Origin: Bacillota bacterium
Lineage (GTDB): Bacteria; Bacillota; Dethiobacteria; DTU022
Assembly: GCA_040751775.1 (NCBI GenBank)
Contig: JBFMGD010000002.1
Coordinates: 22,731-86,730 of the forward strand
Length of the DNA: 64,000 bases
Reading direction: 5' to 3'
Both the position numbers and the translations under genes were made by a program. Shown here in pieces: positions 5,733-63,144 of this stretch. Position 1 is the first letter of the stretch; each line of letters starts with the position of its first letter. The notes under the pieces were generated by a model. The model saw only the letters and a list, made by a program, of their open reading frames with translations. It was not told where the DNA came from and did no database searches.

Positions 5733-5762
5733 TTGACAAAAGAAATTAGTCCTGTATATAAT
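5733..5762 (+). promoter_or_regulatory. Sigma-A promoter for the cysE-cysS operon (TTGACA-18-TATAAT)
   Basis: Near-consensus -35 and -10 hexamers lie in the AT-rich stretch 5733-5762 upstream of the T-box leader. Confidence 0.55.
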
Positions 5763-5764
5763 AA

Positions 5765-6040
5765 ATCTAATTTAATAGCCAAAAAGCGATGAACAGGAAA
5801 GTAAGTTTACGGCCGCTCCCAGAGAGGGGTTCTTCATTAAGCTGCAAGGAACTCCGAGACCGGCGTTAACTGAAGTGCACCTGGGAGCAGATGTCGTGAG
5901 CGGTTAGTGTGAGCGGCTTACGGGTTTTCCCGTTATAGAACTGATCGAGCGGGGTGAAACAATTTGCCCAAACAGAGTGGAACCGCGGTTAGCGCCGTCT
6001 CTGTGTCTTCAAACACAGGAGACGGTTTTATTATTTCTAT
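5765..6040 (+). promoter_or_regulatory. T-box riboswitch leader (likely tRNA-Cys responsive) with intrinsic terminator
   Basis: AGUA and AGAGA stem-I elements are present. The T-box consensus AACAGAGTGGAACCGCGG lies at 5971-5988. A terminator hairpin CCGTCTCTGTG...CACAGGAGACGG plus U-tract (5995-6035) follows immediately. A candidate UGC specifier occurs in GAAGUGCACC. The leader sits directly before cysE-cysS, which are classically T-box regulated. Confidence 0.65.
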
Positions 6041-6066: not shown

Positions 6067-6735
6067 ATGTTCAAAAGGATTGGGCAGGATATCAAGGCGG
6101 TCCTGGATCGTGACCCAGCCGCGAAAAGCACCCTGGAAGTGTTGTTATGCTACCCGGGAATCCATGCCATGCTCTATCACCGGGCGGCTCATTTTTTATA
6201 CCGCCGCGGTTTTGTGCTGTTGTCAAGACTGATCTCCCAGCTATCCCGCTTTATTACCGGGATCGAGATCCATCCCGGGGCGGAAATCGGCAGCGCCCTT
6301 TTCATCGATCACGGCATGGGGGTGGTGATTGGTGAAACCACTGAAGTGGGCGAAAACGTTACCATCTACCAGGGAGTAACCCTGGGCGGCACCGGTAAAG
6401 AGAAAGGCAAGCGACACCCGACTGTGGGTGATCATGTGGTCATCGGCGCCGGCGCCAAGGTACTTGGGCCGATTGAAATCGGCGCCGGCGCCCGGATCGG
6501 CGCCGGTTCGGTTGTCCTGCAGTCAGTGCCGCCCGGTTCAACGGTAGTCGGTATTCCCGGCCGGGTGGTATTTTACAAAGGTGAAAAAGTGGCTTCAGTA
6601 AACCTCAATCACACCGACCTTCCCGACCCGGTTGCCGAGGTGCTTAACCGGTTGCAGGATCAAATTGAACAGCTTCGCTTACAGCTGGAAGAACTGGAGA
6701 ATGGAGTGTGCAGCAGTGGCCATAAAGTTTTATAA
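6067..6735 (+). CDS. cysE: Serine O-acetyltransferase
   Basis: N-terminus [19 protein letters not shown] and left-handed beta-helix hexapeptide repeats ([21 protein letters not shown]...). The start lies after the T-box terminator; the track's extension from 5977 overlaps the leader and is rejected. The 3' end overlaps the cysS start. Confidence 0.8.
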
Positions 6736-8122
6736 TACTCTTACCCGCCGCAAAGAAAATTTTGAACCGGTTGAGCCTTTATCGGTTCGCTTTTATGTCT
6801 GTGGACCGACGGTTTACGATTTTATCCATATTGGTAATGCCCGGGTGTTTATCATATTCGATTGCATCAGGCGTTACCTGCAGCACCGCGGTTTTAATGT
6901 AACCCTTGTGCAGAACTATACGGATATAGACGATAAGATGATCCAGCGTGCCCAAGAACAAGGCTCAACCGTTGGCGCACTGGCGGAAGAGTATATCACG
7001 GCTTACCGGGCCGATGCGGCCTTATTGCGAATCAGACCGGCCGATATCCAACCTCGCGCTACTGAGCATATATCCCAGATTATTGCGTTAATCGAAAGCC
7101 TGGTAGAAAAAGGAATGGCCTATTCCAGTCAGGGTGATGTCTATTTTAACACCGCAGCGCAGGACAATTACGGCTTGCTATCTCAACAGAAGCAAGAAGA
7201 ATTGTTGGCCGGAGCCCGGGTTGATCCCGGAGAAAAAAAGAACAATCCACTCGATTTTACCCTCTGGAAACAAAAAAAAACGGGCGAGCCAGCCTGGGAC
7301 AGCCCCTGGGGTGAAGGCCGTCCGGGATGGCATATCGAATGCTCCGCCATGGCCATGCACTACCTCGGTGAAACGATTGACATTCATGCCGGAGGGGCGG
7401 ACCTGGTTTTCCCGCATCATGAAAACGAGATTGCGCAGAGCAGCGGCGCCACCGGGAAACCTTTTGCCCGCTACTGGCTGCATGCCGGTTTCCTGAACAT
7501 TGAAGACCGGAAAATGTCCAAATCGCTGGGCAATGTCCTGACCGTTAATCACCTTTTGCAAGAACACCGCCCGCTGGATTTGCGTTTTTTTATTCTCTCC
7601 GCACACTACCGCAGCCCGTTAAACTACAGTCAGAAGCTGCTGCATCAGGCCCGCGCCGGACGCGAGCGGCTGCAGGAGACGGTGGACAACCTGAACAGCG
7701 TTCTGGCCGTCGCGGGAACCGCAGCCGGTAGACATGTAAACCGGTTGCAGGAAGCGTTGGAGACCGCCGCTTCCCGGTTTACCAAGGCGCTCGATGATGA
7801 TTTCAATACCGCTGACGGGATCAGCGTTTTATTTGATTTGGCGCGTCAATGCAATATCTATCTTAAGGAAGGATATCCATACGATCTGACCCTTTTGGAA
7901 CGAGTCCTTGAGTTTTACCGCGGCGCCAACGAAGTTTTGGAAATATTGGATCTAAATCAACCCGGTGCGCTGGCGTGTAACATCGAGGAGGCTATCGAGC
8001 GGCGCAAGCAAGCCCGGCAGCAAAAAGATTGGTCCACGGCCGACCGGATTCGGGATGAACTTCTGGCTAAAGGAATCGTTCTGGAGGACACCCCGCACGG
8101 CACCCGCTGGAAGAGAAAATAA
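6701..8122 (+). CDS. cysS: Cysteine--tRNA ligase
   Basis: Class I aaRS HIGH motif (FIHIGNAR) and KMSKS (RKMSKSLGN). The N-terminus matches CysS ([11 protein letters not shown]...VCGPTVYD). Start is ATG 6701 or GTG 6716. Confidence 0.9.
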
Positions 8123-8189
8123 ATATGTTCGACGGGAGTGGTTTTGCTTGTCCTTCATCCAGGAAAGAACAATTGAACAAGCATGGCGC

Positions 8190-8807
8190 ATGACCCTGTG
8201 GTCTTGCGCCCGTTACGGTTACAGCTATAAAGTGGAAAAAGGCAGCTACGAGGGGCAACTCAGAAAACAGCTCAATCATTTGACAGTGATGATTGAAGAG
8301 CCTTATACACGTCCCTTGGCGGTCTCGCTGCCTGAGAATTCGGGTATCCCGGCGCCAACTTCGGAGGAGAAGATTCAATCATATTTTTTTGAGTATCTCG
8401 TTACCGACACCAGGGAAGACAAAGAGGACTATACTTACGGACAGTATATGGCGCCGCAGCTGCCCTTTGTAATCGATTTGTTGAATCAATCCAGGGGAGC
8501 AACCAATCAGGCTTGTCTGAGCATCGGCGACCCGGAGAGCATTAAGCTGGTTGATCCGCCCTGCTTAAGAGTCGTGGATTTTAAGATTGTAGAGGGAAAA
8601 CTAACAATGTCAGCATTCTTCAGATCATGGGACATATTTGTTGCTTTTCCGGAGAATTTAGGAGGACTGCAGCTTTTGAAAGAATATATTTTAATGCACC
8701 TCCGGTTTCCGGTGCAAGACGGTCCGATCATAGCCTATTCTTCAGGGGCTCATATATACGAACAATATTTTCCGATTGTAAATTTGTTGAATGCCCATAA
8801 ATGTTAA
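8190..8807 (+). CDS. Divergent thymidylate synthase (ThyA)-fold protein, compact (~206 aa)
   Basis: C-terminal half aligns with the ThyA core: DPPC-L (catalytic Cys present, adjacent His replaced by Leu), GKLT..FFRSWDIFVAFPEN (RS-D...P-N motif) and SGAHIY (H/Y). YGQY and IDLLNQ elements resemble the ThyA dUMP-binding region. Start is uncertain (ATG 8190 or TTG 8148). It lies where mrnC (Mini-III) normally sits between cysS and rlmB. Confidence 0.5.
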   Translation: MTLWSCARYGYSYKVEKGSYEGQLRKQLNHLTVMIEEPYTRPLAVSLPENSGIPAPTSEEKIQSYFFEYLVTDTREDKEDYTYGQYMAPQLPFVIDLLNQSRGATNQACLSIGDPESIKLVDPPCLRVVDFKIVEGKLTMSAFFRSWDIFVAFPENLGGLQLLKEYILMHLRFPVQDGPIIAYSSGAHIYEQYFPIVNLLNAHKC

Positions 8808-8866: not shown

Positions 8867-9649
8867 GTGAACAAGCGGCGCGGCAGTAAGCCAATGGAAC
8901 AAAACGAAAATGATTTAATCGTCGGCCGTCAGGCGGTTAAGGAAGCGTTAGAGTACGGGTTGGTCAAAAAAGTGTTTCTGATCCGGGACCAAAAAGGAGC
9001 GATTATTGCCGATATTTCCGACGCTGCGCAGCAAAAGGGGATTCCCTTGGTCGCGCTTTCCCGCGACGCATTCGAGCGGCTGGTGGGGGATGGAACCGCG
9101 CATCAGGGAGCGGCCGCCCAGGCTCCGCCTTACCGCTACTTTAACCTGGAAGAGTTGCTGCGTGCTGCAAAAAAAGACCGCTCTCCTTTTTTAATTTTGC
9201 TGGACCATATCCACGACCCTCAGAATCTGGGTTCTATTCTGCGTTCCGCCGGGGCCGCCGGGGTGCACGGCCTTGTTATCCCCGGAGCGCGCGCCGCAAA
9301 AATTACACCGGCCGTGCGTAAGGTAGCCGCCGGCGCTGCTGAACGGGTTCCGGTCGCCCTGGTCGGCAATTTGCACCAGGCCATTACCGTGTTAAAGAAA
9401 GAAAGGTTTTGGGTATACGGGGCGGAAGCCGATGGCCGTGTGCCGTATTACTCGCTAGATTACCGCCCGCCTCTTGCCCTGGTAATCGGTTCGGAAGCGG
9501 CGGGGTTGTCCCGCCTGGTGCGGGACAGCTGTGATGAAACGCTCTCCATTCCGATGCCGGGAACGGGAAGTTCACTGAACGCCGCAGTAGCCGCCGCGAT
9601 CATTATGTTTACCGCGGTCGCGCAACGGGAAGGATGGTTGTGTCGCTAA
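8867..9649 (+). CDS. rlmB: 23S rRNA (guanosine-2'-O)-methyltransferase RlmB (SpoU/TrmH family)
   Basis: N-terminal L30e-like substrate-binding domain plus SPOUT methylase motifs (LVLDHIHDPQNLGSILRSA, IGSEAAGLS, LNAAVAAAI). Position after cysS is conserved. The start could be the internal ATG 8894. Confidence 0.8.
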   Translation: MNKRRGSKPMEQNENDLIVGRQAVKEALEYGLVKKVFLIRDQKGAIIADISDAAQQKGIPLVALSRDAFERLVGDGTAHQGAAAQAPPYRYFNLEELLRAAKKDRSPFLILLDHIHDPQNLGSILRSAGAAGVHGLVIPGARAAKITPAVRKVAAGAAERVPVALVGNLHQAITVLKKERFWVYGAEADGRVPYYSLDYRPPLALVIGSEAAGLSRLVRDSCDETLSIPMPGTGSSLNAAVAAAIIMFTAVAQREGWLCR

Positions 9650-9702: not shown

Positions 9703-9765
9703 ACCGGGCGGTAAAAAACCCGGGCGGTAAAAAAGCTTGACCCTCTTATGGCTTTACGTTATAAT
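9703..9765 (+). promoter_or_regulatory. sigH promoter (TTGACC-17-TATAAT) preceded by a tandem 16-bp direct repeat
   Basis: -35 at 9737-9742, -10 at 9760-9765 with a 17-nt spacer. Immediately upstream, ACCGGGCGGTAAAAAA (9703-9718) and CCCGGGCGGTAAAAAA (9719-9734) are tandem copies with A-tracts, giving UP-element or operator-like architecture. Confidence 0.5.
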
Positions 9766-9817
9766 TACCCCGTAAGTGACTTGCCTACTCCCCCACTCAA
9801 AAATCCCGACGGAGGCG

Positions 9818-10486
9818 ATGTGTGTGAGCTTTTTAGCTCAAGAAATTAAAGGAAACAGCGGCAGCGTTTACCTTGAGCTGGAGATTAAAAGCGACGAAGA
9901 TATCGTATGCGAAGCCAAAGACGGTAACACCATCGCCCTGGAATTTTTAATTAATAAATATAAAAATTTTGTGAAAGCAAAGGCACGTTCCTATTTTCTG
10001 ATTGGCGCTGACCGTGAGGATATCATCCAGGAGGGGATGATCGGCCTTTACAAGGCGATTCGTGACTTTAAGGGAGACAAGTTGTCGTCTTTTCGCGCTT
10101 TTGCGGAGTTGTGTATCACCCGGCAGATTATAACCGCTATTAAAACAGCTACTCGGCAGAAGCATATCCCGTTAAATTCTTACGTTTCGCTGAATAAACC
10201 GATTTATGACGAAGATTCGGATCGGACCCTGCTCGATATACTATCCGGAACCAAGATTACCGATCCGGAAGAGTTGATGATCAATCGTGAAGAATATAAT
10301 GATATTGAATTCAAGATGGGTGAAATTTTAAGCGATCTAGAATGGAAAGTGCTTACCCTTTACCTTGAAGGAAAGTCCTACCAGGAAATAGCTGTTGATT
10401 TACGACGTCATGTCAAGTCGATCGATAACGCTTTGCAGCGTGTCAAGAGAAAACTTGAACGTTACCTGGAGGTTCGAAAAAGCTGA
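9818..10486 (+). CDS. sigH: RNA polymerase sporulation sigma factor SigH
   Basis: Very strong similarity to Bacillus SigH throughout (FLINKYKNFVKAKARSYFLIGADREDIIQEGMIGLYKAIRDF..., ELCITRQIITAIKTATRQKHIPLNSY). Start is probably ATG 9818 or GTG 9824, after a GGAGG at 9809-9813. The ORF track's longer N-terminus has no RBS. Confidence 0.85.
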   Translation: MCVSFLAQEIKGNSGSVYLELEIKSDEDIVCEAKDGNTIALEFLINKYKNFVKAKARSYFLIGADREDIIQEGMIGLYKAIRDFKGDKLSSFRAFAELCITRQIITAIKTATRQKHIPLNSYVSLNKPIYDEDSDRTLLDILSGTKITDPEELMINREEYNDIEFKMGEILSDLEWKVLTLYLEGKSYQEIAVDLRRHVKSIDNALQRVKRKLERYLEVRKS

Positions 10487-10520: not shown

Positions 10521-10549
10521 TTGACTTTTATAACATCAGCGTGTATAAT
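10521..10549 (+). promoter_or_regulatory. Sigma-A promoter for the tRNA cluster (TTGACT-17-TATAAT)
   Basis: Consensus-like hexamers with a 17-nt spacer lie about 16 nt upstream of the first tRNA. Confidence 0.55.
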
Positions 10550-10565: not shown

Positions 10566-10639
10566 GCGGGTGTAGCTCAATGGCAGAGCCCTAGCTTCCC
10601 AAGCTAGTCGCGTGGGTTCGATTCCCATCACCCGCTCCA
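10566..10639 (+). tRNA. tRNA-Gly (anticodon CCC)
   Basis: Manual cloverleaf: acceptor GCGGGTG/CACCCGC, D-arm TAGCTCAATGGCAGAGC, anticodon stem CTAGC/GCTAG with loop TTCCCAA, T-arm GGTTCGATTCC, encoded CCA. Confidence 0.7.
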
Positions 10640-10646
10640 CTGACAG

Positions 10647-10723
<77 letters not shown>

Positions 10724-10776
10724 CTTTAAGGAAATCGCTGATTGCGGTTTCCTTATCTAAATTAGCATACTTTTAG

Positions 10777-10853
10777 GCTCACGTAGCTCAGGCGGCAGAG
10801 CGTATCCTTGGTAAGGATAAGGTCACCGGTTCGAATCCGGTCGTGAGCTCCAC
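10777..10853 (+). tRNA. tRNA-Thr (anticodon GGT)
   Basis: Acceptor GCTCACG/CGTGAGC, anticodon stem with loop TTGGTAA, T-arm GGTTCGAATCC, CCA end. Confidence 0.7.
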
Positions 10854-10855
10854 AC

Positions 10856-10932
10856 GGCGGCGTAGCTCAGTTGGCTAGAGCATGCGGTTCATACCCGCAG
10901 TGTCCGGGGTTCGAATCCCTGCGCCGCCACCA
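10856..10932 (+). tRNA. tRNA with CAT anticodon (elongator Met or Ile2/lysidine)
   Basis: Acceptor GGCGGCG/CGCCGCC, anticodon loop TTCATAC, T-arm GGTTCGAATCC, CCA end. Lacks initiator features. Confidence 0.65.
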
Positions 10933-14749: not shown

Positions 14750-14921
14750 TAATAAAATGATTGAATAGTATTCCGTAGACAGCAGGTACCCCGGTTTAAT
14801 GGCCGTCCGGCCGCCTGCCCAGGAAAGCGCTAATCCATTTTTCTTTAACTGGGGGAAAGGGGCTTTCCATTGCGGAAAGCCCTTTAGATTTATATTTTAC
14901 CCAAACAAGGAGGTGAATCGT
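14750..14921 (+). promoter_or_regulatory. Ribosomal protein L10 leader (rplJL autoregulatory attenuator)
   Basis: Structured 170-nt leader between rplA and rplJ ends in the hairpin GGGCTTTCC-attgc-GGAAAGCCC (14860-14882) followed by a T-rich tract. This matches the Firmicutes L10-leader attenuation mechanism. Confidence 0.55.
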
Positions 14922-28434: not shown

Positions 28435-28486
28435 CAATTTATGTTGACCCAAGACATTGAAAACGTTTGTGCGATGAAGTAAAAGG

Positions 28487-28515
28487 TTGCCGGGCCGGCC
28501 CGGGTAATTTTTACG
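28487..28515 (+). terminator. Terminator-like GC palindrome after tuf copy 2 / within the S10 leader
   Basis: CCGGGCCGGCCCGG palindrome followed by GTAATTTTTA. Confidence 0.4.
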
Positions 28516-28558
28516 GAGCATGTCTGTTTCAATCAGGCGAAAAGGAGGCACTTAACCC

Positions 28559-62763: not shown

Positions 62764-62920
62764 CGCAAAAAAGCCGCACCTCCATAAATGGAAGACGCGG
62801 CCGCACAGCCTACAAGATCTCCTTTCCAATTACGGGAGGTAGGGGGATTTCTCCCCCAACCCAGACCTTCCGCCGTAGCCTGTCCGGCTGTAGGCAATGA
62901 AGGTTCGGAGTTCATTATTC
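62764..62920 (-). promoter_or_regulatory. Candidate Moco (molybdenum cofactor) riboswitch with a terminator expression platform
   Basis: Minus-strand RNA contains ...CUCCGAACC...CCUACAGCC...GGCGGAAGG...CCUCCCGUAAUUGGAAAGGAG..., resembling conserved Moco-motif elements. It is followed by the hairpin GUGCGGCCGCGUCUUCCAUUUAUGGAGGUGCGGC plus UUUUUU (forward 62767-62806). Located immediately 5' of the moeA-moeA-moaA-mobB/moaC-MOSC/mogA operon. Confidence 0.5.
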
Positions 62921-63144
62921 ATTTTTACTTGCCGATACCATTATACCATTTCGCCCCATAGATACAACATTCCTGCTTAATGGAACAAGGGACTATTTTC
63001 TTCTCCCACCTCTTGGCCCCCTAATAACAGGAATTGATAAGGCGGAGCTGACCATAGCGGTATCGCAAAGGTTTCCCTTGTCAAAGCAACCTTTTTAGTG
63101 TAAAATAATGTAAGTATAATCCTTCTCGAAAGAAGGCCCAATAT

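Follow-up and report, generated by a model that had tools for sequence, protein, structure and literature searches.

A short-form ThyA-family gene between cysS and rlmB is probably the housekeeping thymidylate synthase of a Dethiobacteria-related lineage

Thymidylate synthase (TS) is essential, a classic drug target and among the best-studied enzymes, yet detailed work has been confined to its canonical ThyA and ThyX types. The methanogen-type and archaeal ThyA enzymes have been described as enzymatically uncharacterised (PMC9931769, PMC9012536). Work published in 2026 on ThyA homologs of phages (PMC13326640) related individual active-site positions, given here in Escherichia coli numbering, to chemistry: Asn at the N177 position goes with deoxyuridine monophosphate (dUMP) and Asp with deoxycytidine monophosphate (dCMP), Asn at the D169 position marks the flavin-dependent 5-hydroxy-dCMP synthases, and a hydrophobic residue at the L143 position accompanies methyl products, while Asp or Glu accompanies hydroxymethyl products. 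The ancestral gene order in Bacilli is cysS-rnc-rlmB-orf1-sigH, with a mini-RNase III gene in the gap between cysS and rlmB (PMC8046335). Here we analyse a gene that lies in this same gap, in the position where the initial annotation had expected the mini-RNase III gene, within a 64,000-nucleotide stretch of a Bacillota bacterium genome (assembly GCA_040751775.1, contig JBFMGD010000002.1, positions 22,731 to 86,730 of the forward strand), hereafter called the window. This gene, referred to as gene X, belongs to the short-form members of the ThyA superfamily and is probably the housekeeping thymidylate synthase of its lineage, making thymidine monophosphate (dTMP).

Gene X is delimited as follows, and residues are numbered throughout on its product.

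8134-8138, forward strand: GGGAG, a Shine-Dalgarno-like motif 9 nt 5' of the TTG, read from the sequence
8148-8807, forward strand: coding sequence of gene X, short-form ThyA family, 219 amino acids, TTG start codon, TAA stop codon

The frame is open from 7965 to 8807. The stop codon of cysS lies at 8120-8122, and the 50-odd codons with which the frame begins fall within the 3' part of that gene. The start was placed at 8148 because the N-termini of the homologs begin at the same point, their conserved residues (W13 is invariant) starting directly after it, and because GGGAG lies upstream; position 8124, given earlier as the beginning of the gene, is not a start codon. A longer upstream reading frame leading to a full-length canonical ThyA was ruled out, since the upstream stretch overlaps cysS and the homologs start identically. 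The gene is accordingly not an ordinary full-length thyA with a misplaced start, and the compact size of about 206-220 amino acids proposed in the initial annotation is borne out. With 100% identity, the product corresponds to the NCBI entry MEW5783683.1, which is titled "MAG: thymidylate synthase [Bacillota bacterium]" (MAG, metagenome-assembled genome). As this label already exists, calling the gene a thymidylate synthase adds nothing new; the novelty lies in the active-site make-up of the subfamily to which X belongs, for which there is neither a curated model nor a biochemical study.

The product of gene X has the fold shared by thymidylate synthase and dCMP hydroxymethylase, as had been suggested from the sequence. 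This assignment is solid because a PF00303 match above the gathering threshold, a full-length alignment to TIGR03283 and a confident AlphaFold2 model agree. The PF00303 match, the basis of the existing label, covers residues 120-212 only and passes marginally (E 4e-6, 26.5 bits against a threshold of 24.3), and the subfamily is not represented by any curated equivalog model. The best curated model is TIGR03283, the methanogen-type TS, to which residues 3-208 align over model positions 2-198 of 201 (E 1e-26). The AlphaFold2 model, built with 21 family sequences, reached a pLDDT of 88.6 and a pTM of 0.87, and its top structural match is a flavin-binding short ThyA homolog (PDB 9iqc). Elsewhere the matches were faint: the PHROGs database gave weak matches to canonical TS families and no dedicated family, the best tblastn match among 50,697 cultured-phage records showed 33% identity across half of the length, and a structure search of BFVD returned generic ThyA-family matches only, at no more than 20% identity.

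Of the described enzymes, the methanogen type resembles X most closely along its whole length. Both have about 200-220 residues without the canonical C-terminal extension, and the model of this type (positive control: ORF59 of Methanobacterium virus PhiF1, 187.1 bits, above the cut-off of 174.55) aligns with X from end to end. They further share P-C-L, an acidic residue at the L143 position three residues before the Cys, an aromatic residue followed by R-S-x-D, P-N, and H-x-Y. The methanogen type keeps T-R-R, with the equivalents of R126 and R127, whereas the subfamily of X has T-N-Q; the motifs G-S-[YF]-x-G-x-x-R, E-x-Y-T-Y-G, PPCLR and FRSWD are found in the subfamily and are missing from the methanogen type. 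The hosts differ as well, being methanogens on the one side and bacteria (including the Nitrospirota L071 and L072), the Candidate Phyla Radiation (CPR), DPANN and phages on the other.

Residue equivalences were taken from profile hidden Markov model and hhalign comparisons with PDB entries and canonical ThyA and from MAFFT alignments, and conservation was scored over 90 full-length representatives of the subfamily. The codons concerned are listed below.

8502-8510, forward strand: T119-N120-Q121, equivalent to E. coli S125-R126-R127 (hhalign, MAFFT)
8562-8564, forward strand: Cys139, the predicted nucleophile (E. coli C146), within D136-P-P-C-L-R141; Cys in 88/90
8622-8657, forward strand: R159-S160-W161-D162...P168-E-N170, equivalent to E. 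coli R166, S167, D169 and N177; conserved in 85-89/90
8751-8759, forward strand: H202-I-Y204, equivalent to E. coli H207/Y209; conserved in 88/90 and 86/90

All ThyA motifs named in the initial annotation are present, namely DPPC139L, GKL, R159-S-W-D162, P168-E-N170 and G200-A-H202-I-Y204. X thus retains the equivalents of C146, R166, S167, D169, N177, H207, Y209 and Y94 (the conserved Y97) of canonical ThyA as known from E. coli, L. casei and human (TIGR03284, PF00303), from which we infer that it shares the substrate and the product of these enzymes. E. coli H207 and Y209 contact the 3'-OH of the deoxyribose. The equivalents of the segment from R159 to N170 have roles in phosphate, pterin and uracil recognition (PMC13326640), and Asn170 and Asp162 point to a predicted preference for a uracil nucleotide as substrate and for a cofactor of the pterin type, not a flavin. 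Compared with canonical ThyA, X is about 45-100 residues shorter, and hhalign (97% probability) aligned only residues 99-209. Within this region it has Asp136 in place of L143, Leu140 in place of H147, Phe158 in place of Q165 and Trp161 in place of C168. The Leu after the nucleophilic Cys had been singled out as a peculiarity of this protein; it is indeed present, but it runs through the whole subfamily and is best seen as a trait of the short form, because it also occurs in PhiF1 ORF59, a bona fide methanogen-type TS.

Across the representatives, the conserved motifs are [D/H/N]136-P-P-C139-L140-R141, [FW]158-R159-S160-W161-D162, P168-x-N170 and H202-x-Y204, and the other conserved positions are W13, G32-S33-[YF], R39 (88/90), Y79, E93, Y95 and Y97. 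Conservation points to K/R31, R39, E77, Y79 and E93 as candidate stand-ins for the canonical R21, E58 and W80, and the subfamily-specific basic residues R39, R141 and K/R146, together with K/R31 in about half of the sequences, may form a rebuilt phosphate site.

A word-index search with X yielded 3259 homologs at E≤1e-3, and an exhaustive search of representatives at 50% identity gave 939 clusters at E≤1e-3, of which 91 reached E≤1e-30. In ten divergent representatives the best model was TIGR03283 throughout, always below its cut-off (56-96 bits). Against 12 orthologs, the proportion of nonsynonymous differences (pN) was 0.09-0.14 and that of synonymous differences (pS) 0.69-0.98, the latter being saturated, and the single computable dN/dS was 0.055. 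Gene X is real and under strong purifying selection; with 3259 homologs and pN well below pS, it is far beyond what chance would produce.

The best case for dTMP synthesis by the subfamily comes from the genes next to its members, since they bracket the step from dUMP to dTMP on both sides. In distant members (36-64% identity), which were surveyed among 73 GTDB species genomes and whose neighbours were confirmed with Pfam, the ThyA-like gene is never near cysS and its neighbours are deoxynucleotide-metabolism genes. It is directly followed by nrdD in 7 genomes and adjoined by a dCMP deaminase gene in 5; in one genome each of Patescibacteria, Pacearchaeota and Nitrospirota a thymidylate kinase gene is adjacent or overlapping, and in one of Saccharibacteria it lies at a distance of about 1 kb. 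One locus has the order ThyA-like gene, dCMP deaminase, P-loop kinase and dUTPase, and a 119-kb phage contig carries DnaE, a class II ribonucleotide reductase, the ThyA-like gene and a dUTPase. In representative P0156 (422 amino acids) the ThyA-like domain is fused to a thymidine kinase (PF00265). Four further representatives (P0136, P0155, P0181 and P0255) contain intein splicing domains with LAGLIDADG homing endonucleases inside the ThyA-like domain; inteins are commonly found in essential genes for replication and nucleotide metabolism, and their presence supports a role in dTMP synthesis. Neither the window nor 1.9 Mb of flanking sequence at 158 loci yielded another TS (a ThyX motif or a canonical ThyA) by tblastn and motif scan, which is a weak negative.

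Some details of these loci were noted in passing. In two Patescibacteria/Saccharibacteria MAGs (L059, 9318-10708; L058, 9435-10714) the ThyA-like gene overlaps the thymidylate kinase gene tmk or the dCMP deaminase gene by a few bases and lies directly after nusG-rplK, again beside the cluster of ribosomal and translation genes but not at the junction found in the window. IMG/VR has at least 123 viral loci with the subfamily gene, which lies in replication modules. On two of these contigs (L110, 5595-5981; L111, 7326-7985), open reading frames near the ThyA-like gene are QueD-like and QueE-like by motif only, which hints at phages that pair base modification of the 7-deazaguanine type with a dTMP supply of their own.

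From the fold, the residues kept and lost, the synteny, the selection and the genomic associations, as shown here, we infer the substrate, product, cofactor, oligomeric state and cotranscription proposed in this work. By homology with ThyA, Cys139 would add to C6 of dUMP, while Asn170 would read the uracil, Arg159 and Ser160 would hold the phosphate, and His202 and Tyr204 would hold the 3'-OH. Arg39, Arg141 and Lys/Arg146 may replace the lost R21, R126' and R127' (primes denote the partner subunit). A methylene group would come from a pterin one-carbon carrier bound via Asp162, presumably 5,10-methylene-tetrahydrofolate as the organism is a bacterium, and would be reduced to yield dTMP. Two options had been put forward in the initial annotation, a minimal archaeal-like ThyA and a paralog with altered chemistry such as a hydroxymethylase. 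The first is favoured by the full-length TIGR03283 match. The second is not, because Asn170 and Asp162 are kept and because distant members have dTMP-pathway neighbours and a thymidine kinase fusion.

Several results weigh against a housekeeping TS. The product fails the trusted cut-off of TIGR03283 (93.8 versus 174.55 bits) and that of the canonical model TIGR03284 (26.7 versus 108.35 bits). No alignment to canonical ThyA was obtained for its N-terminal half, which leaves the R21 loop, E58 and W80 without an assignable counterpart; the initial annotation had likewise found the N-terminal Arg loop unrecognisable, and the hhalign alignment with canonical ThyA indeed begins only at residue 99. 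The phosphate-binding arginines contributed by the partner subunit, R126 and R127, are replaced by N120 (88/90) and Q121 (76/90). As judged from the alignments, the loss of both is the main departure of the predicted active site, and it was overlooked in the initial annotation. The product lacks the C-terminal segment with which canonical ThyA closes over the folate, as it stops 15 residues after Y204 of the H-x-Y motif, compared with 55 after Y209 in E. coli ThyA. Asp136 stands at the L143 position, where an acidic residue is correlated with hydroxymethyl products (PMC13326640), an argument weakened by the fact that methanogen-type TS is also acidic (Glu/Asp) there. A tblastn search with E. 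coli FolA as the single query, which would miss divergent and non-homologous enzymes, found no FolA-like dihydrofolate reductase (DHFR) in the window or near the 158 loci, and a motif scan of the window gave no credible DHFR either. Among the 73 genome loci and the named matches there was neither a cultured organism nor a cultured phage, and we found no published work, experimental or other, on the subfamily.

In the subfamily, two of the four classical phosphate arginines are thus replaced, a third (R21) is unrecognisable and the C-terminal folate clamp is lost. If its members are truly the sole source of dTMP in these lineages, they show with how little a ThyA active site can make do.

Some of the same features would fit a TS with non-canonical cofactor chemistry, which we regard as unlikely. 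Such an enzyme would draw the methylene group from a folate but take its reductant from elsewhere, for example from a flavin, or use another one-carbon carrier, so that no dihydrofolate would be formed and no DHFR needed. The region of W80 and W83 and the canonical C-terminal folate clamp are missing from X, and the position of F176, which contacts the p-aminobenzoic acid moiety of the folate, is variable in the subfamily (E/T/A/V). No FolA-like gene adjoins the subfamily gene or occurs in the 1.9 Mb of flanks, in contrast to the canonical thyA of Bacillus phage Edson (L161, 212-1684), which is directly followed by the DHFR gene dfrA; the absence of a nearby folA, however, says little about a whole genome, and the limits of the single-query search apply here too. 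Among 81 Thermodesulfovibrionales genomes with "thyA", folA is present in only 4.9% (PMC11974145), and Nitrospirota carry the subfamily; those "thyA" genes may or may not be members of it. With the same reservation, the subfamily may bear on "thyA without folA" genomes in general and hence on the folate auxotrophies and cross-feeding deduced from them.

The closest structural match, 9iqc, is in line with flavin chemistry as well. It belongs to the 5-hydroxy-dCMP synthases of T-even-like phages (RB69 gp48, DLP3 gp80), with which X shares the short architecture (234 residues in 9iqc) and the acidic L143 position. This closeness may reflect the architecture alone: the two are 19% identical, and 9iqc was missed by sequence search. 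The diagnostic replacements N177D and D169N of these synthases (PMC13326640) are both absent from X, which has N170 and D162, the latter being Asn in the flavin-dependent enzymes. Moreover, 5-hydroxy-dCMP synthase needs O2, whereas X-bearing lineages encode the anaerobic reductase NrdD beside the ThyA-like gene. A bolder version, in which the subfamily defined by DPPCL, TNQ and FRSWD would be a mechanistically distinct third route to dTMP on the ThyA scaffold, minimal and without a folate clamp, with a phosphate site rebuilt in cis from Arg39, Arg141 and Lys/Arg146, uncoupled from DHFR through another reductant or one-carbon carrier and serving as the sole TS of many uncultured anaerobes, CPR and DPANN members and phages, likewise appears improbable to us.

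We consider it very unlikely that X is a pyrimidine C5-modifying paralog, for instance a dUMP hydroxymethylase forming 5-hydroxymethyl-dUMP. In favour of such a paralog, Asp136 stands where dCMP and CMP hydroxymethylases have Asp or Glu, a residue supposed to let water in (PMC13326640), and a polar residue (D/H/N/S) is found there in 83 of the 90 representatives. Bona fide methanogen-type TS has Glu or Asp at this position too, so the rule cannot be carried over to enzymes of the short form, and the L143 position was dropped as evidence for a hydroxymethylase because it does not discriminate; the acidic residue that X shares with the hydroxymethylases MilA (acting on CMP) and T4 gp42 (acting on dCMP) is uninformative in the same way. 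These two enzymes have Asp at the N177 position for cytosine, whereas X has Asn, and they belong to antibiotic or phage-hypermodification clusters, in contrast to the housekeeping operon of X. The subfamily is abundant in uncultured phages, in some beside 7-deazaguanine genes, which would suit base modification, but X itself is chromosomal and kept in about 40 species, the window holds no glycosyltransferase or other hypermodification genes around it, and cellular relatives neighbour dCMP deaminase, thymidylate kinase and dUTPase genes, with the one thymidine kinase fusion. In addition, no bacterial chromosome is known to have 5-hydroxymethyluracil as a bulk base.

That X acts on RNA or is non-catalytic or regulatory, for example in place of Mini-III beside an rRNA methyltransferase, is suggested by its position alone (the mini-RNase III slot, probably on one transcript behind a T-box) and is highly improbable, as it has no RNase III signature, conserves the full mononucleotide-binding catalytic set and, outside its own clade, is linked to deoxynucleotide-metabolism genes and never to cysS or rlmB.

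The neighbouring genes and sites, with domains assigned by Pfam, are the following.

5733-5762, forward strand: sigma-70-type promoter, TTGACA-18-TATAAT, 12/12 consensus positions, a pattern match only
5780-6005, forward strand: T-box leader 5' of cysE (Rfam RF00230, 93.5 bits, GA 93, E 3.6e-19)
6067-6735, forward strand: cysE-like serine acetyltransferase gene, hexapeptide-repeat match; the reading frame opens at 5977 and the start is uncertain
6701-8122, forward strand: cysS, cysteinyl-tRNA synthetase gene (PF01406, E 2e-129; DALR_2, CysS_C), ending 25 nt before X
8894-9649, forward strand: rlmB-type SpoU RNA 2'-O-methyltransferase gene (PF00588, PF08032), 86 nt 3' of X
9737-9765, forward strand: promoter-like site before the sigH-like gene, 11/12 consensus match, the probable downstream end of the operon
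9776-10486, forward strand: sigH-like sigma factor gene, Sigma70_r2/r4 domains

The order around X is ispD, ispF, cysE, cysS, X, the SpoU/RlmB-type methyltransferase gene and the sigH-like gene, followed by four tRNA genes and tuf, and the cysS, rlmB and sigma factor genes are those named in the initial annotation. It had also stated that the gene in the slot is not RNase III-like. This agrees with PF00303 being the sole Pfam match and with the lack of E.LGD and AY.GDA motifs in X; with Mini-RNase III (mrnC/yazC) X has only the genomic position in common, and no relationship in sequence or fold. A motif scan detected no RNase III/Mini-III signature anywhere in the window, and no yacP/NYN-type gene, the counterpart of the yacP-like orf1 in the Bacilli operon (PMC8046335), lies in the 127-bp gap between rlmB and the sigH-like gene. 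In some Clostridia a thyX gene may occupy the place between cysS and rlmB, in which case X would be a non-orthologous replacement in situ; no weight is placed on this here. The genes cysE, cysS, X and rlmB are likely cotranscribed from the promoter and T-box leader 5' of cysE, because both precede cysE, a terminator scan found no terminator-like sites between cysS, X and rlmB, and the next strong promoter precedes the sigH-like gene. X and rlmB may thereby be transcribed under the tRNA-charging control exerted by the T-box leader of cysE-cysS.

The place of X between cysS and rlmB had been regarded as an oddity. It is instead a stable trait of the lineage, as the arrangement is kept in about 40 GTDB species. 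The approximately 40 loci, with genes 74-86% identical to X, preserve ispD-ispF-cysE-cysS-X-rlmB-sigH(-tuf), cysE being syntenic in about 35 of them; each comes from a MAG that bears the label Bacillota, Dethiobacteria or "Syntrophomonadaceae". Identity in these loci is lower for cysS (about 65-70%) and rlmB (about 54%) than for X. In two related MAGs (L013, 3396-6000, and L025) a pair of genes, by eye 2-oxoacid:ferredoxin oxidoreductase-like (582 and 304 amino acids), is inserted between X and rlmB, so this junction is not inviolable. When a neighbour-joining tree (no bootstrap) was rooted with the methanogen type, the cysS-linked genes fell into a single clade, to which the phage gene is the nearest outgroup, and the nrdD-linked Dethiobacter genes and the CPR genes into other clades. 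This topology fits vertical inheritance after a single insertion: X would have entered the cysS operon in one event, possibly from a phage, in the common ancestor of a clade related to the Dethiobacteria.

Further along the window, the four tRNA genes between the sigH-like gene and tuf (Gly-CCC, Met-CAT, Thr-GGT and Met-CAT) lie at 10566-10932 and are preceded by a promoter-like site (10521-10549). The reverse strand carries, at 62803-62922, a molybdenum/tungsten cofactor riboswitch (RF01055, 68.7 bits). An L10 leader at 14755-14897 and an S10-Clostridia leader at 28466-28543, both above the Rfam gathering thresholds, fit a Clostridia-like ribosomal gene cluster.

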